From IMG/VR virus record IMGVR_UViG_3300043331_001676, positions 1-64,000 of that record: a stretch of DNA of 64,000 nucleotides. One strand, given 5' to 3'. The notes under the pieces were generated by a model. That model made no database searches, was not told the DNA's origin, and saw nothing but the letters and a program-made list of their open reading frames with translations. Below, piece by piece: positions 2,057 to 50,005 of this stretch (position 1 is its first letter; each line of letters begins with the position of its first letter). Both the position numbers and the translations under genes were made by a program. The stretch comes from a virus.

Positions 2057-2488
2057 TTAAGCCTCACCTTGGCCTCTGCGGGCCACTTCGTCCGGGAACC
2101 TGACGCCGAGGATGCCCAGGGCGCGCCTTGCCGGTTCGGGCAGCGCCAGCAGCCGCTCGATGGCATCTGCCGGCATTTCCAGGTGAAAGACGGTGTACTT
2201 GATCTGGCGCAGCCGGGCTTCGAGCTGGCTGAAATCGGGTAAATCACCCGACCCCAAAAGCCGGTTCGCATCGGCGATCCCGGCCTCCTCTCTGGCCACA
2301 ACGGCGGCCCGCGCGGCCCATTCCCAGGCCAGCCCTTCGGCAGGTCCTTCGAGGGCCTCAGGAGGCTCCTTAGGATGCTGGGTGGCCGCAGCCCGGCCCA
2401 GCTCGCAGGCGGCCAGGGCGCGGTCACGGGGTGTAGCGTTGGGGTTGTTGTAGGTTTCCAGATGTGACCATTCGTCAGGATGCGACAT
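2057..2488 (-). CDS. Hypothetical protein carrying in-frame micro-repeat insertions
   Basis: GAGGAGG RBS; contains repeat copies at 2070-2090 and 2333-2376. Confidence 0.6.
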   Translation of the reverse strand: MSHPDEWSHLETYNNPNATPRDRALAACELGRAAATQHPKEPPEALEGPAEGLAWEWAARAAVVAREEAGIADANRLLGSGDLPDFSQLEARLRQIKYTVFHLEMPADAIERLLALPEPARRALGILGVRFPDEVARRGQGEA

Positions 2489-2984
2489 TATCGGTTTCCT
2501 CCTCGGCCATCTGCTCTTTGATCTGCCGGTTGATTAAAGTAAAGGCTTGCTCGTCTGCGCCGGCAGCCAGTTCCCGGTACTCAACCGCCAGGCCGTAAAT
2601 CTCGGCCAGGAATTCAAAGGCATTTTTCAGTTCTTTGTAGGCATGGCCCCCTGAACCGCTGTAGTCGGTCATCCCACAGGTCAGATAGACAGTGGTTTCG
2701 GTGCGGACCTCGGCAAAGATTTGATGGCCGCCTGCGATCTCTTTTTGCGGGCAGAGCCAGAAGGTCAGGCCGGTAACAGGGCCGTAGCCGCCCGCCAGGG
2801 CGTGGTAGAGCAAAGGGTAGATGTCATCGGACGAAAAGCCGATGAAGTCCACCAGGTCGTCCCGGCTGGGGTCAAAGGGATGCCGGGTCAGGTACCAGGT
2901 TTGACCGTATTCCCTGGCCTCCTTCATATGATCCGGCCGTTTGATGGCCTTGACGATAGTTTTGAGAGCTTGCTGCTTGTTCAT
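2475..2984 (-). CDS. Hypothetical protein
   Basis: AAAGGA RBS, operon tiling. Confidence 0.7.
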   Translation of the reverse strand: MNKQQALKTIVKAIKRPDHMKEAREYGQTWYLTRHPFDPSRDDLVDFIGFSSDDIYPLLYHALAGGYGPVTGLTFWLCPQKEIAGGHQIFAEVRTETTVYLTCGMTDYSGSGGHAYKELKNAFEFLAEIYGLAVEYRELAAGADEQAFTLINRQIKEQMAEEETDNVAS

Positions 2985-3008
2985 GGTTGTTTGGTCCTTT
3001 CTGGTTAA

Positions 3009-4022
3009 TTATTCGACTTGATCCTGGGCGTTTAGCATCGCGCCCTGGCACATCTGCACGTAATCGGCCAGCGCTTGCAATTCGTCACCTAAAGCTTCCT
3101 GAAACAGCTTCAAATCACCCTTCAGTTCCAGAAATCGCGCCCCGGCGACCTCTACCCGTTTCGCCGTCGCCTGCGGCCCCCGGCCATCCGGCTCGGTGAA
3201 CTCCTTGAGCAGGCCGGCCAGCTCGCGCTTGAAGCTGTCAATCACACCGGCCCTGATCTCCTGCTTATTGCGGGCGGCGAAGGCGCTGCCGTCGTCGGCC
3301 ACCTGGTAGACCTGGCAGGTCAGAGGGTTTTGGGTAGTCCGGTACTTTTCCAGGCTGAGCACAAAGGTTTGCAGCGCTTCCAGCTTGTCAGCCGCCCCGG
3401 CGACATTCGCCGGGATGAAGTAAGTCCCATCGGCCAGGCACTTGGCCTTGAGTTTATCAAGGTACTTGCGCAGCCCGCCCCGCACGTCCTGGCCGTCAGC
3501 CATTACAAGCTGGCGGTCGTACTCATCCCGCATCCGGTTGATCAGGACCTTGATATTGCCGTTGGTGGCCGAGAGCGGGTCGAAATCAGGGTGGTACAGG
3601 CCGATGAACTTATCGGTATTGGTGGCGGCGTCGGCGTCGAATTTGAGGATAGCCACCGACTTCATATCGAGCTGCCTGTCCTTCTCGCCGGCAGCCTTGA
3701 CGACCACGCTGCGGACCAGGTGGCGGCAGACGCCGAATTGTTCATCGTTGGCAATAATTTTTGTTTCGACGTAGACCAGGGGATCGCAGCCGAACTGCGA
3801 GCGGATTTTGGCGGCGAAGGCAGCCGGCGGCTGAAGCTTCTGCTTTTTGATGTTGGTCGCCTTCTCCCAGGCATCGTGGGGCCGGGGCGGGAGCGGGACA
3901 TAGGCGGCATCGAAGCCGGCAGCCTGGGCGATTGCAGCAAGATCGGCGTAGGGCGCGGCGATGTCAGCCATACGATAGATGATGAGGTAGCCGAGTTGTT
4001 GAGTATTGTTAGCGGCGGTCAT
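3009..4022 (-). CDS. Conserved hypothetical protein, DUF6744/DUF3150-like
   Basis: AGGAG RBS; GYLIIY...GFD..YVP.PPRP.DAW N-terminus recalls this family. Confidence 0.55.
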   Translation of the reverse strand: MTAANNTQQLGYLIIYRMADIAAPYADLAAIAQAAGFDAAYVPLPPRPHDAWEKATNIKKQKLQPPAAFAAKIRSQFGCDPLVYVETKIIANDEQFGVCRHLVRSVVVKAAGEKDRQLDMKSVAILKFDADAATNTDKFIGLYHPDFDPLSATNGNIKVLINRMRDEYDRQLVMADGQDVRGGLRKYLDKLKAKCLADGTYFIPANVAGAADKLEALQTFVLSLEKYRTTQNPLTCQVYQVADDGSAFAARNKQEIRAGVIDSFKRELAGLLKEFTEPDGRGPQATAKRVEVAGARFLELKGDLKLFQEALGDELQALADYVQMCQGAMLNAQDQVE

Positions 4023-4051
4023 TGCTAGATGCTCCTATGAGACCTGTATGG

Positions 4052-5194
4052 TCAAGGCGATTCCATTAAGGCTTTCACGGCGAAATACATCTCGGTTGAT
4101 TTTTTGGCCTTGTCGCCGTTGGCTGGAAAGCCGGTATAGTTACGTTCTTTTAGTTTGCCCTTGGCCTCAGATTCAGACAGGCCGAAATCCAGGTGTAGCT
4201 GATAAAGTAGATCCTCCAGGGTCTCAAAGCCCCGCTTGGCACGGCGGGCGCCCACGTCTCGCCGCCACAGCCGGCTAAGCTCAGCAGGGGCCGCCTGGCC
4301 TCTGCGGGCCACTTCGCCAGCGTATTTTTCTTTGACTTCGCTATAAGCGTTTTTGGCATGCTGCAAGGCTCCAAATACGCCTTGCTCCATGGCCCACTCG
4401 ATAGCCGCCTCGTCGTTGACAAAGGTATCCGGCCCGGCCTGCTCAATCTGGTCCTGCTCGGCCTGGCTGAGGCCCCCGTAAACTGCTGCCTCGATCTTCT
4501 CCGGCATCCCGGTCCACTTGCCGCTATCATCCCACAGGGTCATTCCGCTGCGGCCCCGGCGCGCCCAGACTACCTTGACCCCCCGGCGCTTTTCATCAGC
4601 CGACTTGACGATATGCAGCTCTACATTGAGCGAGCGATATAGGCGCGCCCGCTCGGTGGCGCTCAAGGTGTGCCGGATCACTTCTTTGGCGTTTTCGTCG
4701 CGGCTATCTTGAAGGTGATAGATCCAGAGTACATCCGTGCCCCAACGGGTTATGGCGTCTTGCAAGAGGCGCATTGTGAGTGCCTTGTCCTTAAACGGAG
4801 TGGTTAGATTTTCCAGGTCTTTGCGGCCCTCTACTTTCTTCTGGCGATTGCGTTCGCGCCGGGCGTCACTTTCTATAACAGCCTCGACCACCTTTGGCGT
4901 AATGATCGCGGTCAGGCTATCTACTACGATGGTCTTTACCCCACTGTCAGGCATATTTTCTCCGAGCAGCTTATGGATTGTCTCAGGTGAGGCGCTATCG
5001 GCGGGATCGTTCGACAGCTCGTACACATCACCCTCGACCAGGTTGACCACCTCGCTAAAGCGATGGTCGGCATCAATCGGTAGCAGCGGAGTGCGCATCT
5101 GGGTAGCAAAGGTGCTTTTGCCATCGCCGGGATAACTTACCAGCGCCCAGTGGCGCGGTGGATATTGGGGCTTGGTCATTTTTTGAAAAGGCAT
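4052..5194 (-). CDS. AAA_24 / Sak4-like phage recombination ATPase
   Basis: Walker A SYPGDGKST, LPIDAD, Walker B TIVVDSLT; AAGGAG RBS. Confidence 0.8.
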   Translation of the reverse strand: MPFQKMTKPQYPPRHWALVSYPGDGKSTFATQMRTPLLPIDADHRFSEVVNLVEGDVYELSNDPADSASPETIHKLLGENMPDSGVKTIVVDSLTAIITPKVVEAVIESDARRERNRQKKVEGRKDLENLTTPFKDKALTMRLLQDAITRWGTDVLWIYHLQDSRDENAKEVIRHTLSATERARLYRSLNVELHIVKSADEKRRGVKVVWARRGRSGMTLWDDSGKWTGMPEKIEAAVYGGLSQAEQDQIEQAGPDTFVNDEAAIEWAMEQGVFGALQHAKNAYSEVKEKYAGEVARRGQAAPAELSRLWRRDVGARRAKRGFETLEDLLYQLHLDFGLSESEAKGKLKERNYTGFPANGDKAKKSTEMYFAVKALMESP

Positions 5195-5206
5195 TTTGGA
5201 TACTCC

Positions 5207-5494: not shown

Positions 5495-6076
5495 TCATAG
5501 TAGGTCTCCTATATTTCGCCAATCGGCCAGGCCCGGCAGGTCGGCCAGGTGTGCGTTCCAGGGCAGGGCAAAGCGGATCACCCGCCGGCCCGCCTCGGAT
5601 AGTTTGGTCAGGGTCGTTGGGCTATCGTCTACGTGCCAGTCAAAGGCCACGCTGCCCTTGTCGGTCGTGTGAATGATTGAACTATAGGGAATATTCCAGC
5701 GTTTGAGCCACGGCTCGGTGAGCCAGGGGCAGGCTGTGGCGGTGGTGATGACCAGGCGGTAATCCCGGCTGAGGCGGCGCAGGGCCGGGACGACGCCAGG
5801 CAAGGGCTTCGCTTCGGCGAAAATCATTGGGTCGGCCCAGGCCCAGCTTGTGAATTCTTGATTATCCAGGCCGAGCAGGTTGCCCAGGGGCGGGTCCCAG
5901 CAGCTAAACATCTGGCGCTGAAGCTTGAGAGAATAGCGGCGCTGGACGGCGGCGATGATAGAGCCGATCTGGTCGCGGATGACGTTGTCCAGGTCCAGGG
6001 AGAGGGTGGATTGGCAGGGCCGAACAGGCCCGAAGGCATGGGCTGGAATGGTTTGCGGGAAGAAGTAGGGCTGCAT
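5495..6076 (-). CDS. HAD-family 5'(3')-deoxyribonucleotidase (NT5C-like)
   Basis: Motif I LDLDNVI, motif II VITTA, K, motif IV HVDDSP. Confidence 0.85.
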   Translation of the reverse strand: MQPYFFPQTIPAHAFGPVRPCQSTLSLDLDNVIRDQIGSIIAAVQRRYSLKLQRQMFSCWDPPLGNLLGLDNQEFTSWAWADPMIFAEAKPLPGVVPALRRLSRDYRLVITTATACPWLTEPWLKRWNIPYSSIIHTTDKGSVAFDWHVDDSPTTLTKLSEAGRRVIRFALPWNAHLADLPGLADWRNIGDLL

Positions 6077-6324
6077 TAGATAATCTCCTGGTGATTGAGA
6101 GCGATTTGTGACCAGGCCAGGCGGTCGTCGGGTTGGGCGACCTGGCCGAGATAGGGCAAGCTGCGTCCTGAGTTTATCGAAGGGTTGGGTTTTTCGGCAG
6201 CGGTCATGGTGACCACGCCCGCGCGAGTGCTGATGAGATGCGCCCAGTAAGCGGCTTCGCCCTGCGGGGCATCGAGGAAACGACCAGAGAAGAAGATACG
6301 GGTGGTGGGCCGGCTCATCCTCAT
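6076..6324 (-). CDS. Hypothetical protein containing a repeat insertion
   Basis: Operon tiling; repeat copy at 6164-6184. Confidence 0.5.
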   Translation of the reverse strand: MRMSRPTTRIFFSGRFLDAPQGEAAYWAHLISTRAGVVTMTAAEKPNPSINSGRSLPYLGQVAQPDDRLAWSQIALNHQEII

Positions 6325-9183: not shown

Positions 9184-9432
9184 ATGAAGCTTACTTCTCA
9201 AACCTCTGATTATGCCCTTGAGGAAGTTCCTGGTTCACAGTACCAGACAGTTGAACAGTGCCAGGAAGCGCTTCTTGAGCCACTGGCCCGGTTGATCGCC
9301 GAGATGATCTGCCAGGCCCGGTTAGCAGATGAGGGCAAACGTGATACAATAGAGCCGTGTCCTGAGAACTTCCTGAGCGCAACCGAAGGGTTTATCGAAG
9401 GACCAAAAAACTTCGAGGCGAGCAATGTTTAA
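9184..9432 (+). CDS. Small protein upstream of the integrase (RDF candidate)
   Basis: AGGA RBS; overlaps the integrase start; function inferred from position only. Confidence 0.45.
   Translation: MKLTSQTSDYALEEVPGSQYQTVEQCQEALLEPLARLIAEMICQARLADEGKRDTIEPCPENFLSATEGFIEGPKNFEASNV
9322..9350 (+). promoter_or_regulatory. Possible dedicated integrase promoter
   Basis: TTAGCA-17 nt-TACAAT with extended -10 TG. Confidence 0.5.
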
Positions 9433-11032
9433 GTTTCCCCCTTGTCCGCTGCCGCCCTTCTCGCGGGTGTGGCTCTACCTGCGCGATTCCGGCGGCGACA
9501 ACCAGGATTTATCCAGCCAACGGGCTTACGGCCTGGCCTACTGTGAGCATTACCGGCTTCAACTCGTGCGTGGTTTTGAGGATAGCGCCGTAAGCGGTGG
9601 CTCAATCAAGGGTCGGGATGAATTTGAAGCCATGATCGAGCTGGCCCGGACAGGCAAAAACCCTCTCGTAAACGCCATCCTCTATTGGGATACAAAGCGA
9701 TTCGCCCGCAACCAAACTGATTCTCAGTATTATAAAGCCCTGCTGAGGCGACATGGCTATAAACTCATCTCGCTTTCTGATGATATTCCTGATAATGAAC
9801 TCTCGTTCGTGTTTGAGGCGTTTTTAGAGTGGAAAGCCCAAAAGGACAGAGAAGATTTATCAAAGGACATCAAACGAGGGATGTCCCACATTGTAAGCTT
9901 GAGAGACAGCGATGGCAATTATCTGGGCATCTTCCCCGGTGCTCTGCCAACATTCTTCAAAGGCATCCCCTACAATACCGGCATTACCAGAAACGATGGC
10001 AGCGTCAGGATTCTCCAACGCATTATCCCCGACCCCGATACATGGCCCCTGGGCCAGCGGGCCTGGCAAATGCGGGCCGACCGGGCCAGCTACCAGGAGA
10101 TCGAAAGAGCCTTGCAGATTTTTCCGAAAAACCCCAACCCTTCGCCCACCTACTACTATCTTTTCCGCAACGAGATTTACATCGGCCGGCTGCGCTACAG
10201 CGGCCAGGTCTACGAAAACTTCGTGCCGGCCCTGGCTACCCCAGAGCAGTGGGAGCAGGTGCAGGAGTTGAGTTACGAGCGGCCCAGAGCCAATACGTCT
10301 TTTCCGGCCGACAAGCTGCACCCCAAGGCGGGACGCGGGGGTTTCCTGCTCTCCGGCCTGTGCCAGTGCCTTTACTGCGCGGCCAATATTCATGGCTCGA
10401 CCAACCGCCGGCCCGAACGCCAGACCGCCTGGCGTTACTATGTCTGCTCGACCAAGGAGAAGCGGCCCGAGCAGTGCCGGGAGAGCAAGCGGCTGCCGGC
10501 GCACAGGATCGAGCACGAGGTGGTTGATTTTGTGCTTTCACGGGTGCTGACCGTTGACTTCGTGAGCAAACTGGCCGAGCGGGTCAACGCTATCCTGAAC
10601 AATACCGAGGTCATTCAAGACGAGATCGAGCGGCGGCAAAAGCGGTTAGGCGAGCTTCGCCGGGCCGTAAGCAGCTTGCTGGATGCGATTGAGCTGACCC
10701 CATCCACCGACCTTCTGGAGCGCCTGGCCAGGCGGCAGAGAGAACGAGATACCTGCGAGCGAGAGTTAAAACAACTGCAAGCACAGATGAGTACAAACCG
10801 CTATCTGGTTGATGAAACTTCTATCTTGAACCTGCTGACCGAAATGCGATCAACGCTAACGGCCGGGGAAATTAAGGCGAGGCAACTCATACTGCAAGGC
10901 GCAGTGGTCAAAATCGAGCTGGGCCGTGACGCGGGCCGGATCCATTATCGCTTCCCATTGACACGGGTTTATTTAGAGCGGGTAAACTGGCTCGAATTAA
11001 ACCCTGTACAAATTTACGACTTTGAGTATTGA
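9425..11032 (+). CDS. int: Large serine recombinase (integrase)
   Basis: YLRDS catalytic Ser, D..SG...R, RFARN, recombinase domain, LSGLCQCLYC...YYVC...C zinc ribbon, coiled coil. Confidence 0.95.
   Translation: MFKFPPCPLPPFSRVWLYLRDSGGDNQDLSSQRAYGLAYCEHYRLQLVRGFEDSAVSGGSIKGRDEFEAMIELARTGKNPLVNAILYWDTKRFARNQTDSQYYKALLRRHGYKLISLSDDIPDNELSFVFEAFLEWKAQKDREDLSKDIKRGMSHIVSLRDSDGNYLGIFPGALPTFFKGIPYNTGITRNDGSVRILQRIIPDPDTWPLGQRAWQMRADRASYQEIERALQIFPKNPNPSPTYYYLFRNEIYIGRLRYSGQVYENFVPALATPEQWEQVQELSYERPRANTSFPADKLHPKAGRGGFLLSGLCQCLYCAANIHGSTNRRPERQTAWRYYVCSTKEKRPEQCRESKRLPAHRIEHEVVDFVLSRVLTVDFVSKLAERVNAILNNTEVIQDEIERRQKRLGELRRAVSSLLDAIELTPSTDLLERLARRQRERDTCERELKQLQAQMSTNRYLVDETSILNLLTEMRSTLTAGEIKARQLILQGAVVKIELGRDAGRIHYRFPLTRVYLERVNWLELNPVQIYDFEY
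10958..11011. other. Probable attP site within the integrase 3' end
   Basis: 22-bp imperfect inverted arms (16/22 match) around the 10-bp core GGGTAAACTG. Confidence 0.7.
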
Positions 11033-14421: not shown

Positions 14422-14611
14422 AGTGCTCCGGGGCGCGGTCCCGGCCCACGACCAGAAGCTTGAGCCGGAGGCTCGACTATTGATCGCGGTCTTCCGGCAG
14501 GCCCGGATTGATCTATTTTCAGCCTCGGACCAGATCAGGACCATGGCCGAGCGGTTCCTGGCCTCGTATGGCTACGATGTCGAGGAGATCAGGGCTTGCT
14601 GGAAGCGATAA
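14414..14611 (+). CDS. Small phage hypothetical protein
   Basis: RLLIAVFRQARIDL helix; GGGGG RBS. Confidence 0.55.
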   Translation: MARVLRGAVPAHDQKLEPEARLLIAVFRQARIDLFSASDQIRTMAERFLASYGYDVEEIRACWKR

Positions 14612-14645
14612 ATCAGAACGAGCGTTTCGAGAAAGGACACTGACG

Positions 14646-15644
14646 ATGGGCGAAAATAGCAAGATTGAATGGTGTGACCACTCCTGGAATCCGTGGATTG
14701 GCTGCGTCAAGGTTAGTCCTGGCTGCAAGTTCTGTTATGCCGAGGAGCTAATGACCCGCAAGGGGCGCTGGGCCAACACATGGGGACCGGCACAGACTTC
14801 CGAACGGATTAAAACCAGTGATGACAACTGGCGCAAGCCCTTGCGGTGGAATCGACAGGCCCAAAAAGAGGGACGGCGGTTCAAGGTCTTTTGCGCGTCG
14901 TTGGCCGACGTGTTTGAAGATAATCCCCAAGTTTATGATTGGCGGCTTCAGCTATTTAGCCTTATTAGCGAGACGCCTAACCTGGATTGGCAGATACTAA
15001 CCAAGCGGCCTGAATTTGCCAGGGCGTTTTTTGAGAAGCGCCCACACTTGCTTTGGCCCAATGTTTGGCTTGGTACGAGTGTCGAAAATCAGGAGCAAGC
15101 CGATAAGCGCATACCCGAATTGCTCAGGACCCCGGCTCAGGTTCGTTTCCTGAGTTGTGAGCCGCTTTTGGAGCCGGTACGGTTGGCTGATGCGTGGTTA
15201 TATGATTATGTAACTGATAGGCGAGACGCTTGTTTTATTGATTGGGTCATTGTTGGCGGCGAATCAGGACCGCAGGCGAGGCCGATGCACCCCGAATGGG
15301 CGTGGCAAATCGAGCGGCAATGTGAAGCGGCAGGCGTAGCCTTTTTCTTTAAGCAGCACGGCGAATTTATTAGCAAACCCGAAATTGCCGATTTGACCGA
15401 AGATGGATGGAAGGTCAGGCCAGAATGGTTGCCGATGATTCAAGGTAGCCGGTGGGGTTGTCTTGACATCAACGGAAAGTACAGGCCGGAAACTACAACC
15501 TGGAATGGGCGGCAAAATGATCCACAGGATGATTATGAGGTTACGGTTTATAAGGTCGGCAAACATAACGCTGGTCGCCTGCTCGATGGCCGGACGTGGG
15601 ACGAGTTCCCCGACACCGCCACGCTTGAGCCGGCCACACTTTAA
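14646..15644 (+). CDS. DUF5131 / phage Gp37-Gp68 radical-SAM-like protein
   Basis: SKIEWCDHSWNPWIGCVKVSPGCKFCYAE, LTKRP, FLSCEPLL, WVIVGGESG, FFKQ; AAAGGA RBS. Confidence 0.92.
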   Translation: MGENSKIEWCDHSWNPWIGCVKVSPGCKFCYAEELMTRKGRWANTWGPAQTSERIKTSDDNWRKPLRWNRQAQKEGRRFKVFCASLADVFEDNPQVYDWRLQLFSLISETPNLDWQILTKRPEFARAFFEKRPHLLWPNVWLGTSVENQEQADKRIPELLRTPAQVRFLSCEPLLEPVRLADAWLYDYVTDRRDACFIDWVIVGGESGPQARPMHPEWAWQIERQCEAAGVAFFFKQHGEFISKPEIADLTEDGWKVRPEWLPMIQGSRWGCLDINGKYRPETTTWNGRQNDPQDDYEVTVYKVGKHNAGRLLDGRTWDEFPDTATLEPATL

Positions 15645-18993: not shown

Positions 18994-19852
18994 TCCCTTC
19001 GATGAACCCTTCGACCGCGCCCTTCGACAGGCTCAGGACAGCGCTCAGGAAGTTCTCAGGGCGCAGCCCTGCCCGGCCTGCGGCGGGACCGGCTTTTTCC
19101 GCCTCGATGCCCCGGTCGGTGCGCCCGGCTTTGGCCGCCTGGAAGCCTGCGATCACCCCAACCATACCCCAGTGAGGTTGGCCCGCCTGTCCGGCCTATC
19201 TAGCCTGCTTCCGGCTGAGGCAAAAAAGCGGCTTAAGGACATAAGGTCCAATAGCAAAAATGGCGAGGTCCTGGAGGCGGCCAGGGAGATGATTCGCAAT
19301 CCGCGCGGCTGGTGGCTGTACCTGTACGGCAAGGCTGGCAACGCCAAGAGCGATGTCCTTCTGGCCGTCCACAACGAGATCAATGCCGCAGGCCGGGGTC
19401 CGGCGCTCTACGTTGAATTCACCCGGCTGCTGAACTGGATCACCGAAGCCCACAACGAGAAGGATTATCGCAGCAAATTCCTGGCCGGCGGGGGCGGGAA
19501 AGAGGGGGGGATGCCCGACAGTCTCGGCTACCAGGCCCGCCTGGACCGGATTACGGCCCTCCCGGTCATCCTCATTGACGAATTCGACAAGGCTCGGATG
19601 ACCGACTTCCGGGAAGAGTTCCTGTTCGAGTTCCTGAACACCCGCTGGCGGCAGGCCGTGGCCGGGGAGACGGCCACCCTGTTTGCCGGCCAGACCGCGC
19701 CCATTGACTGGCCCGACCCGATCCGCAGCCGGATTGAAGACGGGCGTTTCAAAGTCGTCCACAACCTGGCCGGCGATGCCCGACGGGCGATGAAAAGAAC
19801 CCTTCGACCCTTCGACTTCGCTCAGGAAGTTCAAGCTCAGGATGGGAGGTGA
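18806..19852 (+). CDS. DnaC/IstB-like AAA+ helicase loader
   Basis: CPACGGTG zinc motif, variant Walker A GKAGNAKS, Walker B ILIDEFD, IRSRI. Confidence 0.8.
   Translation: MDKLDAVISKVYEKTAAITPSSQSSTPTPGKITTLTPDPGSGSILTAAPATGAIQSTDPTQPDPFDEPFDRALRQAQDSAQEVLRAQPCPACGGTGFFRLDAPVGAPGFGRLEACDHPNHTPVRLARLSGLSSLLPAEAKKRLKDIRSNSKNGEVLEAAREMIRNPRGWWLYLYGKAGNAKSDVLLAVHNEINAAGRGPALYVEFTRLLNWITEAHNEKDYRSKFLAGGGGKEGGMPDSLGYQARLDRITALPVILIDEFDKARMTDFREEFLFEFLNTRWRQAVAGETATLFAGQTAPIDWPDPIRSRIEDGRFKVVHNLAGDARRAMKRTLRPFDFAQEVQAQDGR
18995..19063 (+). repeat. Triple-nested REP-like (CGTC-type) unit CCCTTCGACAGGCTCAGGAC; family has more than 12 loci in the window
   Basis: Three CCCTTCGA left halves followed by three CTCAGG right halves; other loci at 2333, 6164, 9358, 11131, 11202, 19800, 32020, 36362, 37008, 38823, 43969, 49462. 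Confidence 0.85.
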
Positions 19853-19855
19853 ACG

Positions 19856-20266
19856 ATGTGGCTCTTTACAACCTTCGGCTTTTTCTCTGTCGTCAAAAAG
19901 CACGGCGACACAGATTTAACCGTTCGCGCTCGTGTGGCCGCCGACCTGGACAATCTCAGAACGCGCGTTCCCGAACTCTCGGAGACTATTGCCACCCCGG
20001 ACCAGGATTACCCGTACCGGGCCACCGTCTCGGCGGTAAACCTGGCTATCGGCCTGGGTGAGGCGATCCAGGAGATTGACTACGATAACTTCAAGGCCGA
20101 GGGACCCATTGGGCCGACACTGGCCCGGCGGCAGGGCTATTTCCGGGCCGGGATGTACAGCCAGGTCTGGATGGGGCTGCATAACCTGCCTTATGAAGCG
20201 GGAAACCCTTCGACCTTGCTGGCCTCTCCGGGCCACTTCGTCTGGACAGGCCCTGATGTCAAGTAA
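19856..20266 (+). CDS. Conserved phage hypothetical protein
   Basis: MWLFT.FGFFSVV..VRAR..DYPYRA..IDYDNFK; GGAGGT RBS. Confidence 0.7.
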   Translation: MWLFTTFGFFSVVKKHGDTDLTVRARVAADLDNLRTRVPELSETIATPDQDYPYRATVSAVNLAIGLGEAIQEIDYDNFKAEGPIGPTLARRQGYFRAGMYSQVWMGLHNLPYEAGNPSTLLASPGHFVWTGPDVK

Positions 20267-20483: not shown

Positions 20484-20484
20484 G

Positions 20485-29126: not shown

Positions 29127-29134
29127 CCCTGATT

Positions 29135-37006: not shown

Positions 37007-37113
37007 ACCCTTCGACGGGTTCGACAGGTCCTTCGAGGGCCTCAGGAGGCTCCTCACCGCAGGCAAGCTCACCCCCGTGAGAAGCCGGGGGCAGGTGATG
37101 AAAGGAGATCAGA

Positions 37114-38813: not shown

Positions 38814-40832
38814 ATGCCCGACCCCTTCGACGCAGCCCTTCGACTGGCTCAGGAGGAGCCTCAGGATGTACCCCTGATTGTCCAGCTCACCCGGCAATTC
38901 CAGGCTTCCCTTGACGCCAGAAATAGCGCGGCCATGCAGCAGATGGCCGCCGAGTGGCTCAAGGTCGAGGACCGGCTGCGTGCCGAGATCGAGCTTTTGG
39001 CCGCCGAGCTGGCCAGCCCACCTGGCCAGCCGCTCAAGCTCGACCCCGTGACCGAAATGGTGGTCAGGATGCGGGAGGCCGGCTACGCCCCGGACCGTAT
39101 CCAGCAGCTTCTCGCCTCTCAGGGCATCTTCAAAATCCCCGACATCCCCCAGCCGCAGGCCAAGGAACTTAAAGCCTGGCAACTCGCCAAACTCCAGCGC
39201 TATGTCCGGCTGCTGGCCCAGGTGCAGCAGGAGATCGAGCGCTTCACGGGCCAGACCGCCACGCCGGTGATTGACCAACTGCTGGCCGATAGCGCCTTCG
39301 CCGGCCTCGAAGATGCCCTGACCCTCATCAATGCCACGATCACCGCGAGCGGCGGCAACGCCATTGACTTTGGCTTCGACCGGCTGGGCATCGAGGCGGT
39401 CCAGAATATCGTGGCTGTAGCTTCAGCCGGCAAGCCGCTCGGCGACCTGCTCCAGGCGGCCTACCCGCTGGCTGCCGGCGGGATCACGGATAGGCTGATC
39501 TACGGCACGGCTGCCGGCTGGAACCCGCGCAAGACGGCCAGGGCGATCATTAACGAGGGCCTGGCGCAGGGGCTGAATCATATTCTGCTTGTCGCGCGGG
39601 ATCAGCAGGTAAGGAATTACCGCGAGGCCAGCCGGCAGCAGTATCTAAAAAGCGGGGTCGTCCAGCAATATCGCCGGCTGGCGGCCAGGCAGTCGCGTTC
39701 GTGCCTGGCCTGCCTGGCCCTGGATGGCACGATCCAGGACGTGGCCGAACTTATGGCCCTACACCCCCAGGATAGATGCTCGATCATCCCTCTCGTCCCC
39801 GGCTTTGATCCTATTCCCACCGAAAGCGGCGAAGCCTGGTTCAATAGGCAGCCCGCCGAGGTGCAGCGGCGGATGATGGGGCCGGGTAGGTATAATGCCT
39901 GGAAAGCCGGCAAGTTCAAGTTCAATCAGTTAGCTACGATCAAGCCCAACGCTACCTGGGGGCCATCGGCGCAGGTAACGCCGCTTAAGGACCTGCTCAA
40001 GGGCCGGGGAGGATTTACCCCTGCTACACCACCTGAGCCGCAGCCTATTCCAACCCCCGGCCAGACGCAGCCGCTAACCGGCCCGGCTGCCCGCAAGCTG
40101 ATCGAGGCGATGAGTCAGGAAAGCCAGTTGGCCCAGTACCGGACGCAGATTGCGGACCAGGAGCGATTGGCTGAGGCTGCCTTTAAGGCCGGTGACGTTG
40201 CCAGCGCGACGGCGCTCCTTGATCAATCAACCGAAGTCCTGGTGCAGCTCAGGCAGGCCGAGGAGGAGGTCAAGACGCGGATCCGGGAGAATTTGCTCTA
40301 TGTCCAGACCCCGGCTACCTTCCAGGTCAATTTTGCCAGCCGGTTCAACAGAGAGCTAAAAGCCCGCTACCAGGTCGGCCTGGATGCTTTTGCCAGGATG
40401 GTCGGCTTAAGAACACTGGATGGCCAGACCGTCCAGGTCAAGGCCAGGCGCGGCGGTGGCCGGGCTTACTATGACCGGATGGCAATTGTTCTATCCAGGG
40501 GAACGGGTGAGCGGGTGGTCATCCATGAGGCCGGCCACTGGCTGGAAGACCTGGACCCGGAAGTGCATCGGAAGGCTCTGGAATTCTATGATCGCCGGAC
40601 CCAGGGCGAGCAGGTGGAATGGCTGGGGCCGGGCTACAGCCGCTGGGAGGTAACTCGGCGGGACAAGTTCTTGAGCGATTATATGGGTAAAGAGTATAAG
40701 GATCGCCGGGGCGAACGGTACGCGACCGAGATTATTTCAATGGGGATGGAATATATGTGGGATGACCCGGTCCGACTGGCGACAGAAGACCCGGATTACT
40801 TTGACTTTATCTTTGAGGTGCTGCGGGGTTAG
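38814..40832 (+). CDS. MuF / SPP1 gp7-like minor head protein with C-terminal HExxH domain
   Basis: RSCLACLALDG...HPQDRCS MuF motif; C-terminal VIHEAGHWLE...EIISMG. Confidence 0.85.
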   Translation: MPDPFDAALRLAQEEPQDVPLIVQLTRQFQASLDARNSAAMQQMAAEWLKVEDRLRAEIELLAAELASPPGQPLKLDPVTEMVVRMREAGYAPDRIQQLLASQGIFKIPDIPQPQAKELKAWQLAKLQRYVRLLAQVQQEIERFTGQTATPVIDQLLADSAFAGLEDALTLINATITASGGNAIDFGFDRLGIEAVQNIVAVASAGKPLGDLLQAAYPLAAGGITDRLIYGTAAGWNPRKTARAIINEGLAQGLNHILLVARDQQVRNYREASRQQYLKSGVVQQYRRLAARQSRSCLACLALDGTIQDVAELMALHPQDRCSIIPLVPGFDPIPTESGEAWFNRQPAEVQRRMMGPGRYNAWKAGKFKFNQLATIKPNATWGPSAQVTPLKDLLKGRGGFTPATPPEPQPIPTPGQTQPLTGPAARKLIEAMSQESQLAQYRTQIADQERLAEAAFKAGDVASATALLDQSTEVLVQLRQAEEEVKTRIRENLLYVQTPATFQVNFASRFNRELKARYQVGLDAFARMVGLRTLDGQTVQVKARRGGGRAYYDRMAIVLSRGTGERVVIHEAGHWLEDLDPEVHRKALEFYDRRTQGEQVEWLGPGYSRWEVTRRDKFLSDYMGKEYKDRRGERYATEIISMGMEYMWDDPVRLATEDPDYFDFIFEVLRG

Positions 40833-42990: not shown

Positions 42991-43114
42991 AAATCCAAGC
43001 GGCGGCCTCTGTGGGGGATTCGCCGTTTTTTTGTCCCCCAGGGAGATGCGACGAAGGACCCAACGGGCCGAATCTGGCCCGTAGAGGCCAAGTGCTAATG
43101 CCTGGAGAAGTCAC

Positions 43115-43261
43115 GTGCCGGAATGGCTACTAAAGCTCGCTCGTCGTTTGATGGCCTTACCAGAGGGTCGCTATCAAATAACAGTGACTATCGGGCCGGG
43201 CAATTATTATGACTGCACAGTGACCGAACTCGGCAAAGTTGAGATTTTAGGCAAAAAGTAA
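43115..43261 (+). CDS. Small protein (48 aa, VPEWLLKLARRLMALPEGRYQITVTIG), not in the ORF track
   Basis: GGAG RBS, GTG start, protein-like composition. Confidence 0.55.
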   Translation: MPEWLLKLARRLMALPEGRYQITVTIGPGNYYDCTVTELGKVEILGKK

Positions 43262-43314
43262 CTTTGCCTGGCCCGGCCACCATACCGGGTAACAGCACCA
43301 GGAACGTTAGATAC

Positions 43315-43352
43315 ACGGGGCTAAGACAACTGTCTTAGCCCCGTTTCTTTTT
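43315..43352 (+). terminator. Intrinsic terminator just before the scaffold gene
   Basis: ACGGGGCTAAGACA/TGTCTTAGCCCCGT followed by TTCTTTTT. Confidence 0.75.
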
Positions 43353-43372
43353 ATCACTCAGGGAGTGCAACT

Positions 43373-44221
43373 ATGTTCGTTCGCCAAAACTTACTGACCC
43401 GGCTCTTTTGGTTTCTTGTCCCGCTTCTGGCCATCTACCAAAGCGACCCGCCAGCCCTGCCGCCGGCTGCCCCACCCGCTCCCCCAGCCCCAGCCCCACC
43501 TACCTCCCCACCCGCCGACCCGGGTGCCGGCGTGCAGGCCCTGATCGCTCGCCACAACAACGACCTGATGCGGGTGATTGACCATCTGTACGGCGACAAC
43601 TTTAGCCTGCGGGAAAAGAACCGGACCCTGAAGGAGCAGGTAAAGGACCTGGGAGAGAAAGCGCCGAAGGATGGCGCGGTGGTCCTGACCAAGGCCGAGG
43701 CCGATCTACTGGAGAGCTACAAGGCCCTCGGCGACATCGAAACGCTAAAGACCGCTCAAAGTGAGCGGGATCAATTCAAGGGAGAGCTAGGAGCGCTCCG
43801 CAAAGACGGCATCCTGCGGGACGTGGCCGAGGTTAGCTCATTCAAGTTCCCGGTACTCAAGACGCTGAGTGAGAACAAAGCGCTCAACGGCGAGACCGAA
43901 CTTGAATTCGAGATCAAAGAAGTCGAGAAGGACGGCCAGAGAAAGAAGGTGGCCTTTGTCAAGAACGGCCCTTCGACAGGCTCAGGACAGGCTTCAGGCG
44001 AAGCCAAACCCCTGGCCGACTACGCCACCGAAAAGTGGGCCGACTTCCTGCCCTCGCTGCAAGCCCAGCCCCAGCCACAAACGAACGGCGTGCCGTATCC
44101 AAGCCAGACAACCGGCGGGCCGCCAGCGCCATCCAACGTCCTGGCCGACTTCAAGAAGCAGAGCCAGGAAGCCCGCGCGGCGCAGCCCAACCCATTGAAT
44201 CCGGTAGTAGGTAGTAAGTAG
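43373..44221 (+). CDS. Capsid scaffolding protein
   Basis: Pro-rich N-terminus, coiled coil, position before the capsid genes. Confidence 0.7.
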   Translation: MFVRQNLLTRLFWFLVPLLAIYQSDPPALPPAAPPAPPAPAPPTSPPADPGAGVQALIARHNNDLMRVIDHLYGDNFSLREKNRTLKEQVKDLGEKAPKDGAVVLTKAEADLLESYKALGDIETLKTAQSERDQFKGELGALRKDGILRDVAEVSSFKFPVLKTLSENKALNGETELEFEIKEVEKDGQRKKVAFVKNGPSTGSGQASGEAKPLADYATEKWADFLPSLQAQPQPQTNGVPYPSQTTGGPPAPSNVLADFKKQSQEARAAQPNPLNPVVGSK

Positions 44222-44271
44222 TAGGGAGTAGGGGAATTTCCCCGTCTACCGTCTACCGTCTACCGTCTACC
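44203..44271. repeat. Paired heptamer arrays (GTAGTAG)n / (CTACCGT)n
   Basis: Direct reading; related arrays at 48315-48360 and 49875-49986. Confidence 0.85.
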
Positions 44272-44294
44272 TCCCAAGAAGGAGATCTCCTATT

Positions 44295-44954
44295 ATGACC
44301 CGACAGACCTTTTATGTTACCAAACCACCCTTTGTGGTTGATTCCAAATCCATTGACCGCAACAGCGGCCGGCAGATAGATTGGTCGGTCGTGCCCGATA
44401 GCTATCGGATGGGCGCGGTCAAGGTCGCGGCTGCGACCGTCGCCGATTCCGGCGCGACCACCATGGCCATTACGGCCATCACCGGCGCGATCCCCAGCGG
44501 TACGAACCTTTATTTCGGCCAGGCCGGCGAATTCGCCCGGCTGGCTGCTGCGGCGGCTGCCGGCGCGACCGCGCTGACCGTGGATGCCCTGGGCACCACG
44601 ATTGAGAGCGGCGACGTGGCCTACTACCCCGGCACCGGGGCCAAGACCCTGCCTGCCGGCAAGCTCCTGGTCGAATTGTCCAGTGGCAAGGTAGCCACTC
44701 GCGCTGAACGGCCCGGTTCTGAGGCGGCCTTTGGGTTTCTCGAAACCAACGCTATCGAGAACGAACCCAGCCACGCCCTGACCGGCTACGGCGTCATCGT
44801 CGGCGGGGTGCTGTTTGAGAACCTGCTGCCGGATGCGGCTGCCGGCACCACCGGCGCGCTGACCGATGCCTACAAGCAGGAGCTGGTCGGCAACACCTCC
44901 AACCCCAAGTCCACCGGCTTTGTCTTTGAACAATACGCCGATAACCGCAGTTAG
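44295..44954 (+). CDS. Head decoration / minor capsid protein
   Basis: KTLPAGK...AFGFL...G.LFENLLP; directly before the major capsid gene. Confidence 0.7.
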   Translation: MTRQTFYVTKPPFVVDSKSIDRNSGRQIDWSVVPDSYRMGAVKVAAATVADSGATTMAITAITGAIPSGTNLYFGQAGEFARLAAAAAAGATALTVDALGTTIESGDVAYYPGTGAKTLPAGKLLVELSSGKVATRAERPGSEAAFGFLETNAIENEPSHALTGYGVIVGGVLFENLLPDAAAGTTGALTDAYKQELVGNTSNPKSTGFVFEQYADNRS

Positions 44955-44991
44955 CCAGGGGCTAAAGCAAAGAAAGATAAGGAGATAAACC

Positions 44992-46107
44992 ATGAACTTC
45001 AATTTTGCTCAAGCCCTGGCCGCCCTGCCCCCAGACGCGGCTTTCCAGATCGCCAACGAGGCCCGGCCCCCGGCCAGCTACCTGTTTGCGACACTGCTGC
45101 CGGAGCGGCCGGTCTATGACTACCAGGCCAAGGCCGGCTCGATGACCGTGCGGACGACAATGGCCGGCCTGGCCGCGATGGACTCGCCCTATCCTGAAGG
45201 CGGACTGATCGAGGTCGAGACCTTCAGTGAGAATACTGCCAAGGTCGCCAACCGGGTCCGGCTGCCTGAAGCCGCGCTCCGCCAGCTTCAGAATATGGTC
45301 AAGGAGCTGATGCTCAGTAACCAGCCGACCCTGGAAGTCCTCCAGCGCGAGGCCCTCAACTTCGTGGACAAGCTCATCGTCCAGGCCCACCTGGACACCT
45401 TTGAGTGGCTGCGCGGCAAGGCTCTGGTGACTGGCGCAATCAATTGGACCTTCAACAAGAAGCAACTGTTGGTGGATTACGGCATTCCCTCGGCCAACCT
45501 GCTGACCAACCGGACCGGCAATGATGCCTACAGCGGCAGCGCCTCCAAGTTCTGGGACGATGTCCAGTCGGCCCGGCGCAAGCTCAAACGCGCCATCCGG
45601 GCGGCCATCGCCCACCCGGACACGATTGACGACATCGTGTACAACAGCGCTAACTCCATCTGGAATGCGAGCGAGGGCAGCGGCGGGGCGATCACCATCA
45701 CCCGGCGCGCCGGCGGGCAGAGTACGGCAGACCGGGCCGAGGAGACCGAACTATACCGGATCACCCTGATCCCTTACGGCCTGGAAGGCGAGATCTTCGA
45801 CCTGGCCAACCCCGGCCAGACCGTGACCGTGCCCTTCATGCCGCGCGGCAAGGTGCTCTTTATCGGCAACGAGGCCCGCCCCCGCTTCATCGTGGGCGAA
45901 GGCTCGACGCCGGAAGTGCAGAACGCGCTGGGCTACACCCACCTGGCCCCGACCGTCGAGGGCGGCGGACGGCCCGGACGCTGGAGCCGGGTCTACACGC
46001 CCGAAGCCGAGCCGTGGGCGCTGGAGGCTCAGGGAGTAAGTAATGGCCTCCCCGTGATCGAAAATGTTAATTTGATCGTGGTTAGTTCCACGGACATGAG
46101 TGCGTAA
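44992..46107 (+). CDS. Major capsid protein (gpE-like)
   Basis: 371 aa; EWLRGKALVTG.I...VDYGIP; AAGGAG RBS. Confidence 0.88.
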   Translation: MNFNFAQALAALPPDAAFQIANEARPPASYLFATLLPERPVYDYQAKAGSMTVRTTMAGLAAMDSPYPEGGLIEVETFSENTAKVANRVRLPEAALRQLQNMVKELMLSNQPTLEVLQREALNFVDKLIVQAHLDTFEWLRGKALVTGAINWTFNKKQLLVDYGIPSANLLTNRTGNDAYSGSASKFWDDVQSARRKLKRAIRAAIAHPDTIDDIVYNSANSIWNASEGSGGAITITRRAGGQSTADRAEETELYRITLIPYGLEGEIFDLANPGQTVTVPFMPRGKVLFIGNEARPRFIVGEGSTPEVQNALGYTHLAPTVEGGGRPGRWSRVYTPEAEPWALEAQGVSNGLPVIENVNLIVVSSTDMSA

Positions 46108-46208
46108 GTTTCAAAGAGGTGGCAGCCGCTCACAGTAGCGGCCGCCACCGCCTTAAAGCGTCCATTCTCACACCCCTAAAGGGTGTGCCAGGGGCAGGGA
46201 GAATTGTT

Positions 46209-47108
46209 ATGGAGCAGACATTCAAGATCATGCTGGCCCGCTTCCCCGGCGGGGATGCCGAGCACCCGGCCGAGGTGAACTGGATCATCAACACCCTGCT
46301 GTTTTGCAAGGATGATCCGCGCATCGGCGGCCTGGAGCACTTCTTTCTCAACGACACGCCGGTGACGATGTCGCGCAACCGCTGCGTCCGCGAGGCGATT
46401 GCGAGGGGTGTGGACATCCTGCTCATGGTGGACAGCGACATGGGGCCGGACCTGGTCAATGCCGACCACTGGTTCTGGCCCAGTGCGCTGGATTTCATCG
46501 CCAGCCGCTGGCACATCGCGCCAACGATCATCGCCGCGCCCTACTGCGGCCCGCCGCCGCACGAGAATGTCTACATCTTCCGCTGGCGCAAGTACCAATC
46601 CGACCACGCCAACCCCGACTACAAGCTGGACCAGTTCACCCGCGAAGAGGCGGCGGAGCGCAAGGGCATCGAGGCCGTGGCTGCTCTGCCGACAGGACTT
46701 ATCGCCATTGATATGCGGGTTTTTACCGGCTTCAAAGCAGGTGATGAGCTTCTCAGGCTCCCCACGCCCTGGTTCTACTACGAGTGGTCGGACGAGTATC
46801 AGAGCCACAAAGCCTCAACCGAGGACGTGACCTTTACCCGTGACGTGCACCTGCTCTTTGGCGCGCACGGCCTGGACACCGTCTTTGTGGATTGGGACGC
46901 CTGGGCGGTCCACTTCAAGACCAAGGGTGTGCCGAAGCCGGCGATGGTTGATCCCGGCGGGCTGGCCCGGCTATTCAAGCAGCGGGCCAGCGAAGTGGCC
47001 CGTAGGAGTGCCGGCCCAATGGGTCCCCAGGCGCTCGGTTCTGTGCCAGCAAACGGCCAGGAGCATGAGCCGCTCACGGTCAACGTTCCTGCCTTTATGC
47101 GACCGTAA
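46209..47108 (+). CDS. GT-A fold (GT2-like) glycosyltransferase
   Basis: SRNRCV, LMVDSDM (DxD), TGLIAIDMRVF, PWF, TEDVTF, H. Confidence 0.8.
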   Translation: MEQTFKIMLARFPGGDAEHPAEVNWIINTLLFCKDDPRIGGLEHFFLNDTPVTMSRNRCVREAIARGVDILLMVDSDMGPDLVNADHWFWPSALDFIASRWHIAPTIIAAPYCGPPPHENVYIFRWRKYQSDHANPDYKLDQFTREEAAERKGIEAVAALPTGLIAIDMRVFTGFKAGDELLRLPTPWFYYEWSDEYQSHKASTEDVTFTRDVHLLFGAHGLDTVFVDWDAWAVHFKTKGVPKPAMVDPGGLARLFKQRASEVARRSAGPMGPQALGSVPANGQEHEPLTVNVPAFMRP

Positions 47109-47126
47109 ACAGAAAGAGGTCCTTAA

Positions 47127-47949: not shown

Positions 47950-48317
47950 TCGAACCGCAGGGCCGGCTGCAGGCCGGCCTCTTTCCCGACGGCGACATTG
48001 TCACCAGGGTGACCGCCTGGCTGGCCACAGCCTACACCAAAGTTGGCGGGATCACGGGCAGCCTGCAAGATGCCGCCGCCACAGCTTACACCTATTACCT
48101 GGCCTACAGCCACGTGGCCGACCGGCTGGCGAATGAACCCAACAGCGTCAGTGTGGACAGCGCGGCCAATGTCAGCAAGGCGGTCGGCCAGGACCGGATC
48201 GCTTACTTCAGCCGGCTGGCCCAGAAGTATCTGGACGAGTACGAGGGCTATCTCTCGACCCCGGCCAACCCGGAGCGGCCCCGGTCAGGGTGGGTCAGAA
48301 ACCAGCCGGTGTTTTAG
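47925..48317 (+). CDS. Head-tail connector (adaptor)
   Basis: Size and position. Confidence 0.6.
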   Translation: MALEPTVLIEPQGRLQAGLFPDGDIVTRVTAWLATAYTKVGGITGSLQDAAATAYTYYLAYSHVADRLANEPNSVSVDSAANVSKAVGQDRIAYFSRLAQKYLDEYEGYLSTPANPERPRSGWVRNQPVF

Positions 48318-48327
48318 GTAGTAGGTA

Positions 48328-48348
48328 CGAAGTGGCCCGTAGAGGCCA
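48328..48348 (+). repeat. 21-bp unit CGAAGTGGCCCG(C/T)AGAGGCCA
   Basis: Other copies at 2070, 4296, 20220 (minus strand), 43052-43090 (interrupted), 46991 (degenerate). Confidence 0.85.
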
Positions 48349-48361
48349 GTAGGTAGTAAGT

Positions 48362-48796: not shown

Positions 48797-49022
48797 GAAC
48801 AAGTGGCAGGTCATTGTGGCCGAGTGCGAGAAGTTGAGCGAGGCTACCGGCGCGAAGGTGCTGCCGCTTCAGCCACCGGCAGAAGGCCAGCCGGTGGGCC
48901 TGGAATGGGCCGACCCCTGGGTGCGCGAGGGGCGCTACCTGGACTGGCTGACCAGTTTTTTAATGCGGGTCAACGGCGCGCTTCAGCGCGAAGACCAGGA
49001 ACCAGAGGCCGGGAGTAGATGA
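48789..49022 (+). CDS. Hypothetical protein
   Basis: Coupled overlaps on both sides. Confidence 0.55.
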   Translation: MDENKWQVIVAECEKLSEATGAKVLPLQPPAEGQPVGLEWADPWVREGRYLDWLTSFLMRVNGALQREDQEPEAGSR

Positions 49023-49447
49023 CCGCCGAAGCCAAGGTCAACTGGTATGAGGACAAGGTCCGGCTGGTAATTGACGAAAAAACCGGCCAGACCCTGCTCA
49101 ATGCCGCTTTTCGCATCGAGGAGCGGACCAAGGTCAATATCAACCAGGCTCCCGGCGCAAGTGGGCAAGGATTGATTGACACCAGCTTTATGCTCAACTC
49201 GACCTACGTGGTTGGGCCGAAGGTGAGTACCTATGACCAGGCGCTAAGGTCCGGGATGTACACCAACCGGGCCGGCGAAGAAGTCGAGCGCAACCTGGCC
49301 CCCCAGGCGGACCTGCCCAGGGATGCGGCAGCGCTGGTTGCCGTGGGGGCCGAATATGCCGTTTTTCAGGAGATCATCCATCACTTTTTCTTTCAGGCTA
49401 TTGAGGATACCTCAAGGGAGCTTGGCGGACTGATCGAGAAATTTTGA
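49019..49447 (+). CDS. HK97 gp10-like tail completion protein
   Basis: IDTSFMLNS, AEYAVFQE, FF..A. Confidence 0.7.
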   Translation: MTAEAKVNWYEDKVRLVIDEKTGQTLLNAAFRIEERTKVNINQAPGASGQGLIDTSFMLNSTYVVGPKVSTYDQALRSGMYTNRAGEEVERNLAPQADLPRDAAALVAVGAEYAVFQEIIHHFFFQAIEDTSRELGGLIEKF

Positions 49448-49492
49448 TGAGCGACCTGTAGTGAGCCTGTCGAATAGTGAGCCTGTCGAACT

Positions 49493-49876
49493 ATGCGCGA
49501 CACCGACGCGGCCCTGACCGCTTTTTTACTGGCCCGACCCGGCCTGACTGCCGTAGCCGGGCAGCGGATCCACGCCAGCCTTTACCTGCCGAAGGGCTAT
49601 AAGCCGGATGATGGGCCGGCGCTCATTTTTAACCCGCGCGGCGGGGGGCAGGATTATTCCAGGCTGGTCCTGTCGCCATCGTACCAATTCAGAAGCTTTG
49701 GCCTGACCCAGGCCGAGGCCCGCCGGCTGGACCGGGCGCTTTACGATGCACTCAATGACGCGCAGTGCTATCCAATCAAGATGGCCCGGATGGAATCCAT
49801 CGGCCAACTTTTTCAGGAACCGGACACAGGGTGGCCGTTCGTTCTGACATTTTATCGAATTGATTTCTGCAATTAG
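49493..49876 (+). CDS. Tail terminator protein (DUF3168-like)
   Basis: L.AVAGQRI...P...QFRSFG.T..EA. Confidence 0.7.
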   Translation: MRDTDAALTAFLLARPGLTAVAGQRIHASLYLPKGYKPDDGPALIFNPRGGGQDYSRLVLSPSYQFRSFGLTQAEARRLDRALYDALNDAQCYPIKMARMESIGQLFQEPDTGWPFVLTFYRIDFCN

Positions 49877-50005
49877 GTAGTAGGTAGTAGGTAGTAGGTA
49901 GTAGGGGTTTCCTGTACCCCAGGGGGGACCCAACGGGCCGAATCAGGCGAAGCGCTCTCTACCGTTCTACTGTCTACCGTCTACCGCCCAAGAAGGAGAC
50001 CTACT

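Follow-up and report, generated by a model that had tools for sequence, protein, structure and literature searches.

The window analysed here is the first 64 kb of the 79,023-bp virus record IMGVR_UViG_3300043331_001676 (G+C 58.5%). It carries three families of very short DNA units, of 18, 21 and 24 nucleotides (nt), which are referred to below as F18, F21 and F24 and which lie between genes, in frame within genes and inside one another. Because the record has genes for a large serine recombinase (9425-11032), for a terminase, a portal and a tape-measure-like protein, for ParB-like, DnaD-like and helicase-loader-like proteins and for a DpdA-like TGT protein, it is taken to be a temperate tailed phage. 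The phage is found in soil metagenomes, and no close relative of it was found in the phage collection searched. Its host is likely an Anaerolineales bacterium (filamentous Chloroflexota) related to the metagenome-assembled genome (MAG) H5_CFX7, called G001 below.

The F21 unit consists of a CGAAG tail followed by the hairpin TGGCC-CGNAGA-GGCCA, which has a 5-bp stem and a 6-nt loop, and the loop base N is the sole position that varies among the phage copies. There are four intact copies in the window, at 2070(-), 4296(-), 20220(-) and 48328(+), compared with none in 100 shuffles, and two interrupted copies (Table 1). An initial annotation, made on the letters of the window, had reported that removal of the 21-mer at 48328-48348 restores a heptamer array. 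Its excision in silico joins TAGGTAGTAGGTA to GTAGGTAG and indeed leaves three in-phase TAGGTAG units. The copies in the open reading frames (ORFs) 2057-2488 and 4052-5194 are both translated as EVARRGQ, as had also been noted. The sixth copy has its loop split by a 48-nt insert, and this insert holds an antisense F18 variant (47008-47025).

The F18 unit is GACCCAACGGGCCGAATC (18 nt). It has one variant, GACCCATTGGGCCGRCAC, at 20103(+) and 47008(-), and the family has four copies in the window. At up to three mismatches, three matches (two of them exact) were counted against 0.07 expected from shuffles. Both exact strings, at 43057-43074 and again at 49927-49944, are found where they had been placed before, and excision of the first restores a fifth copy of F21. 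F18 enters F21 at the junction between CGAAG and TGGCC, and the F18 variant lies again just 5' of a TGGCCCG within a gene.

The F24 unit has the form CCCTTCGA-N4/5-CTCAGGA-N5/4, with an 8-nt block, a spacer of 4-5 nt, a 7-nt block and a tail of 5-4 nt. Ten matches to this pattern occur in the window compared with 0.01 expected, and about 12 units are present as singles, double nests and a triple nest, their borders having been parsed by hand. The family had been described as about 24 bp long and as inserting into itself; the units proved to be exactly 24 nt long, and the clusters measure 48 or 72 nt. In the 72-nt nest at 18995-19066, each unit occupies the spacer of the next. In gene 19856-20266, 15 residues of the C-terminal tail come from the composite of F24 and F21 at 20206-20250; its antisense F21, placed after base 14 of F24, means that the families nest across one another. 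The phage thus holds F18 in F21 and F21 in F24 as cross-family nests, and F24 in F24 as self-nests. Both F24 and F21 enter the F24 spacer, and where F21 enters another F21, as it does in metagenomes, it stands after AGA.

Table 1. Units of the three families and associated arrays in the window, sorted by family
Feature	Position	Strand	Location and remarks
F21, intact	2070..2090	-	In frame in gene 2057-2488, 3 codons ahead of the stop
F21, intact	4296..4316	-	In frame in AAA_24 ATPase gene 4052-5194
F21 with F18 between CGAAG tail and hairpin	43052..43090	+	Intergenic
F21, sixth copy, loop split by insert	46991..47059	+	C-terminal tail of gene 46119-47108, in frame
F21, intact	48328..48348	+	Intergenic, in TAGGTAG heptamer array 48313-48360
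F18 variant (GACCCATTGGGCCGACAC)	20103..20120	+	In frame in gene 19856-20266; adds GPIGPT
F18, exact	43057..43074	+	Inside F21 copy 43052-43090
F18 variant	47008..47025	-	Within the insert splitting F21 copy 46991-47059
F18, exact	49927..49944	+	Intergenic, between TAGGTAG array 49874-49905 and TCTACCG array 49958-49986
F24 single, upstream of gene 5495-6076	6161..6184	-	Pattern match and hand parse
F24 triple nest, 3 x 24 = 72 nt	18995..19066	+	N-terminal linker of helicase-loader-like gene 18806-19852, in frame
F24 double nest, 48 nt	19800..19847	+	Encodes the final 16 residues of gene 18806-19852
F24 single, one mismatch in 7-nt block, holding antisense F21 (20220-20240)	20206..20250	+	Gene 19856-20266
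F24 decayed cluster	37008..37052	+	Intergenic; one intact unit, 37029-37052
F24 double nest, 48 nt	38823..38870	+	Directly after codon 3 of gene 38814-40832
F24 single	43969..43992	+	In ORF 43373-44221, read as PSTGSGQ
Two tandem 16-nt units with F24 core TTCGACAGGCTCA	49459..49490	-	Intergenic
Paired heptamer arrays (GGTAGTA then CCGTCTA)	44203..44271	+	Module highly iterated in Anaerolineales genomes G001 and G002

Five or more phage genes, and one gene of the host, contain units in frame. That homologs should show clean empty sites had been named beforehand as the test of insertion, and such sites were found at the protein level, the only level at which homologs were read: 7 residues are missing in two genes, and 6, 24 and 16 residues at other sites. 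For the AAA_24 ATPase (4052-5194), 12/12 aligned homologs, the closest of which is 80% identical, are without exactly the seven residues EVARRGQ, and the phage protein is collinear with them after excision. For the 143-aa protein of gene 2057-2488, the 76%-identical P0122 has the insert and the 52%-identical P0123 is without seven residues there. Gene 19856-20266 is considered real on the + strand because it has thousands of homologs. Eleven of its homologs are without the six residues GPIGPT of the F18 variant; after excision the phage protein reads NFKAEVARRQG, and the 11 homologs have NFKSEVARKAG and the like. None of the homologs of gene 18806-19852 (0 of 10) has the 24-aa or the 16-aa F24 nest. 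The 24-residue nest falls in a variable N-terminal linker, and excision of 19800-19847 leaves AMKRR-stop, which is identical to the ending of homolog P0281. In addition, one F24 unit in the host genome G001 adds eight residues (APSTGSGR) within the conserved PEG.G..N.KG stretch of a GH1 beta-glucosidase.

Strings of this kind might also be functional sites, such as protein-binding sites or terminators, that selection has kept or made and that were never inserted as DNA. Several copies do sit just ahead of start codons or past stops, and the F21 clusters of G001 lie in islands bearing the palindrome CCCCAATTGGGG. However, the gaps in the homolog alignments are of exactly unit length, which argues against strings built by substitution, and copies are also found mid-ORF, in heptamer arrays and within one another. 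We consider functional sites a most improbable explanation. That the units are real and are precise micro-insertions is well supported.

Each family has a fixed length and fixed ends. The lengths of 18, 21 and 24 nt are multiples of three, as the initial annotation had stated, and this is true of the intergenic copies of all three families as well. Because of this length, and because they contain few or no stop codons, the units are tolerated in genes. The targets seen are heptamer arrays, a palindrome, set positions in other units and protein-coding genes. Insertion is precise, and duplication amounts to a possible single base at most. Of 26 independent F21 contexts, 23 have A at -1 (p about 7e-12) and 15 have GA directly ahead of the unit. 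Since F21 itself ends in A, its boundary is ambiguous by 1 nt. No target duplication was found beyond this single A in the flanks of 46 F21 contexts, so that the earlier claim of no target duplication stands in the sense that none is consistent, with the 1-nt ambiguity at F21 as its qualification.

A pattern of this type could arise with no dedicated enzyme, through replication template switching or short-patch repair between small hairpin-forming repeats, and the nests would then be by-products of stalled forks. Many of the sites are other repeats (heptamer arrays, the palindrome, the units themselves), the single common A at the F21 junction could be microhomology, and no co-distributed transposase has been found. 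Microhomology events, however, should yield variable end points and variable cargo, whereas the ends observed do not change over 46 distinct contexts, some of them in unique coding sequence that has no repeat close by. We therefore regard template switching as unlikely.

The orientation of the units bears on another possibility, that of an RNA or reverse-transcribed intermediate in which a small structured transcript is copied back into DNA at preferred sites. All units are able to form small hairpins, and 15 of the 18 unit loci in the phage have the orientation of the genes around them. Against this, F24 copies in the host genomes are evenly split between the strands, and selection on the peptide that a unit encodes could explain the bias in the phage. 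The scan of phage proteins showed no reverse transcriptase, and no Rfam family matched in the window or around the F18 copy of a giant-virus contig (L004) described below. An RNA route appears quite improbable.

F21 was searched in one genome per species for 185,579 species and was found in only two of them, the Anaerolineales MAGs H5_CFX7 (G001) and H5_CFX5 (G002). Among 61 relatives sampled, 58 gave no match to it. The initial annotation had proposed to count copies in host genomes; this count gave 10 exact and 4 near copies of F21 in G001 and one copy in G002, and 41 copies of F24 in G001 and 105 in G002 within 2 mismatches of its 19-nt core. Of 201 genomes sampled from the phylum, 40 were found to have F24, and the highest count in one genome is 145. 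In G001, F21 occupies the centre of CCCCAA/TTGGGG, lies beside the same palindrome or stands in the recurrent context GAGCCGA-F21-AGGCCCCCTATGGGC, and one copy has a different 21-nt insert at the tail/stem junction used by F18. The 39-nt composite of F21 and F18 (43052-43090) recurs in G001 with one mismatch at an unrelated place. The palindrome CCCCAATTGGGG itself has 20 sites in G001, all but one of them in C4:136-193 kb, C4:754-831 kb and contig C10 (L076-L085), and these regions have the appearance of mobile islands related to one another, or of a plasmid-like contig of 80 kb.

Two viral contigs also hold F21, and in one of them (L001) it lies within an AATCGTA heptamer array that is restored by excision. 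The units are also present in soil and sediment metagenomes, and JGI metagenomes have yielded 46 more copies of F21, mostly in a GAGCCRA...AGGCCCCCTRTGGGC context inside heptamer arrays. At some of these loci an empty copy of the context lies alongside, and at others F21 is nested in F21. GAGCCRA-AGGCCCCCTRTGGGC is itself a further small unit of about 21-24 nt, which occurs empty and F21-filled in AATTCAC-type heptamer arrays (L096, L104, L123 and other metagenome loci). Near these loci there are repeated copies of further small modules, for example CCAAGGGGAGGC, and the host repertoire thus exceeds the three families of the phage.

Apart from the units, the DNA common to the phage and G001/G002 consists of paired heptamer arrays only. 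A homologous prophage is absent from G001 and G002, where repeats are the only matching DNA. No gene-level homology was found between the phage and the host F21-bearing regions examined, and the units are therefore common to both as units and not through descent of their surroundings. One protein is common to the phage and the 80-kb contig of G001. It is encoded by ORF 77104-78465 of the record, outside the window, and is an FtsK-like ATPase by eye; it was rejected as not being a plausible insertion enzyme.

We lean towards reading the units as very small non-autonomous insertion units of the small dispersed repeat (SDR) type, which come from the repeat repertoire of the Anaerolineales host and are moved in trans. 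The temperate phage, with its large serine recombinase, would have acquired them while resident as a prophage in the host cell. A sequence-specific, host-encoded enzyme would act on them in trans; with F21 it would recognise the 5' tail and the small hairpin and place the unit 3' of (G)A. The intermediate would probably be single-stranded DNA, in an HUH-type manner, and selection may then spare chiefly the copies that lie in intergenic DNA, at the ends of genes or in variable linkers. We infer that the units are mobilised in trans and may be active at present. As the initial annotation had stated for this DNA, no transposase was seen among the 30 phage proteins scanned, and a Y1_Tnp family search of the whole phage record gave no match.

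Several results weigh against the reading of SDR-type units moved in trans by an enzyme of the host. The initial annotation had suggested looking for a RAYT/HUH or small GIY-YIG nuclease flanked by the same units. Around the strong Y1_Tnp genes examined (one in G001, two in G002), no F18, F21 or F24 lies within 1.5 kb, and the repeats on either side of the host Y1_Tnp (RAYT-like) genes are different hairpin units that resemble repetitive extragenic palindromic (REP) sequences, such as GCCGGGCGGCTTCAGCCCCCGGCG arrays (L087, L086, L088). These GCCGGGCGGCTTCAGCCCCCGGCG-type repeats are a separate repeat system in the same genomes. A match to PF01797 (Y1_Tnp) was obtained in 13 of 21 F24-rich genomes vs 78 of 180 others (Fisher p=0.16), a comparison in which the MAGs may be incomplete, and genomes with 145, 62, 54 and 53 F24 copies have no Y1_Tnp match. 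The 201 genomes include two unpublished ones (G099, G205), both F24-poor, and the Y1_Tnp result is independent of both. With other repeats beside the host RAYT-like genes and with no significant tie between F24 load and Y1_Tnp in this sample, the RAYT/HUH link is not supported. Presence/absence polymorphism at the read level, which the initial annotation had also proposed to check, did not appear either: the contigs from four soil runs are short, have 2-6x depth and stop at repeats, and none of them skips exactly 18, 21 or 24 nt at a unit. No insertion event has been observed happening. A general target preference for hairpin loops was rejected, as insertion sites are not enriched for them (mean stem 3.0 vs 2.8 at random places). 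Finally, the phage has 6 copies of F21 in 79 kb and G001 has 15 in 9.4 Mb, so that the unit is about 40-fold denser in the phage, and 8 of the 15 copies in G001 lie in two palindrome-bearing islands and the 80-kb contig. From this density gap and clustering, the main home of F21 may be mobile DNA or a host that has yet to be sampled, and not a G001-like chromosome.

In one low-depth soil contig (X4, depth 2.6), position 47002 is linked to 43050, and 43090 to 47055. The contig is ambiguous, and it suggests a different arrangement of units at 47002-47055.

The closest known kind of element is the SDR of Nostoc. Elhai et al. 2008 (Genome Res 18:1484) reportedly described SDR4-6 of Nostoc punctiforme and relatives, and SDRs are said to occur also in tandem heptamer repeats and nested within each other. 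The SDR5 of Nostoc is a 21-nt unit according to PMC13756078, and it inserts precisely between bases 3 and 4 of HIP1 according to PMC4390886. PMC5861425 gives SDRs as found in heterocyst-forming cyanobacteria only and not outside Nostocaceae. Nostoc SDRs are dispersed, measure about 21-27 nt and have many nearly identical copies; F21 with 21 nt and F24 with 24 nt are like them in this, and F18, with 18 nt, lies just under the published range. Both kinds of unit insert into heptamer arrays and into other units, which is a likeness of behaviour. As SDR5 does in HIP1, F21 precisely enters the centre of an iterated palindrome, CCCCAATTGGGG; unlike HIP1, this palindrome is a local island motif with 20 sites in G001 and is not genome-wide. 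Nostoc and the Chloroflexota hosts are both filamentous bacteria with large, repeat-rich genomes. The present units differ from SDRs in that they belong to the phylum Chloroflexota, lie in a phage genome and are read in frame within genes of the phage and of the host whose homologs show empty sites. Anaerolineales MAGs, metagenomes and a phage all carry them, whereas SDRs have been delimited as restricted to heterocyst-forming cyanobacteria. The units are best described as an SDR-like phenomenon that is new in its phylum, in its virus setting and in its 18-nt family, the SDR kind as such being already known.

Other systems resemble the units in part. Like REP sequences and bacterial interspersed mosaic elements (see PMC3116915 for REPINs), F21 begins with a short conserved 5' tail and continues as a small hairpin, and the units form mosaics of small modules. 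REPs, however, are extragenic and usually flank a RAYT gene, whereas the units also lie in ORFs, do not lie beside the RAYT-like genes examined and, in F24, have a load with no significant link to the presence of Y1_Tnp. Terminal inverted repeats with target-site duplication, by which miniature inverted-repeat transposable elements (MITEs) are recognised, were not found in the units. IS200/IS605-derived palindrome-associated elements share the lack of target duplication, a short adjoining motif (here (G)A 5' of F21) and a hairpin near the end, but they depend on a different hairpin at each end and are at least about 100 nt long, and F21 is a single hairpin unit of 21 nt. Rickettsia palindromic elements (RPEs) are likewise in-frame repeats in protein genes that add peptide segments. 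They measure about 100-150 bp, five to eight times the length of the units here, which are also in frame but have 18-24 nt, and we know of no report of unit-in-unit nesting among them. The initial annotation was thus right that the units are far smaller than RPEs; it had overlooked the Nostoc small dispersed repeats of 2008 as a precedent, and the phenomenon therefore has a parallel. Identity with REP/RAYT, MITE, RPE or IS200/IS605-derived elements was rejected, as each fails at least one defining feature tested. Fungal mitochondria have mobile GC clusters, double-hairpin elements and byp elements, which are short GC-rich hairpin units that land in coding regions. These are organellar and 27-55 nt or longer, and some are tolerated by translational bypass, unlike the phage and host units, which are tolerated by being read in frame.

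To our knowledge, every transposition mechanism demonstrated so far works on DNA far longer than 18-24 nt, and we know of no explanation of the Nostoc SDRs since 2008. The occurrence in a second phylum and in a phage means that SDR-type behaviour is not a cyanobacterial oddity, and a 79-kb replicon with many metagenomic alleles provides compact material for a mechanism hunt. Through the units, proteins of phage and host can acquire short peptide segments at their termini and in linkers. They explain odd low-complexity stretches in Chloroflexota proteins (PFD..LR.AQD, PSTGSGQ, EVARRGQ), and they account for breaks of assembly contigs at their sites. A broader proposal is that one novel kind of micro-transposition machinery moves units of 18-24 nt in Nostocales, Chloroflexota, their phages and perhaps giant viruses, remodelling protein termini and linkers, with viruses receiving and spreading the units. 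We offer it tentatively, as a speculation that is conceivable but has the balance against it. Giant viruses are included as a possibility because an exact F18 occurs in a 45-nt GC-rich, in-frame insert in an RNase H gene of an AT-rich giant-virus MAG.

The locus concerned is 13230-13268 of contig L004 (28.6% G+C), where F18 lies in the 45-nt stretch, which is read in frame in the RNase H-like gene as ..EQYSN[RTTQRAESVGETHLL]TNNQCEL... F18 is followed there by a 21-nt hairpin, in the same tail-F18-hairpin layout as at 43052 of the window, and the locus has additional GC-rich hairpin islands. Another F18 match, in viral contig L003, was set aside; it lies within ordinary-looking coding sequence and may be due to chance, the chance expectation for an 18-mer in the viral contig collection being one to three matches.

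The window shows further features beside the units. PAPS-reductase-like, DpdA/TGT-like and DUF5131 genes are present at 20356-21786, 26915-28033 and 14508-15644, and the TGT-like gene hints at a 7-deazaguanine-type DNA modification by the phage. The DnaD-like ORF 17797-18993 and the helicase-loader-like ORF 18806-19852 have 188 nt in common, read in different frames. Homolog P0279 shows conservation of the N-terminus of the latter, and the overlap, or the 3' end of the DnaD-like ORF, therefore needs a closer look. Perfect tandem duplications of 36 nt (2.1 copies) and of 15 nt (2 copies) are found at 30117-30190 and 29133-29162, respectively. A 15-nt motif, AAACGAGCGTTTGAA, has about 15 occurrences, near copies included, over 14616-54225 (e.g., 17751, 32790, 38786, 52778). 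Its copies lie mostly immediately 5' of genes, often as overlapping inverted pairs, and it is probably a promoter or operator motif of the phage.

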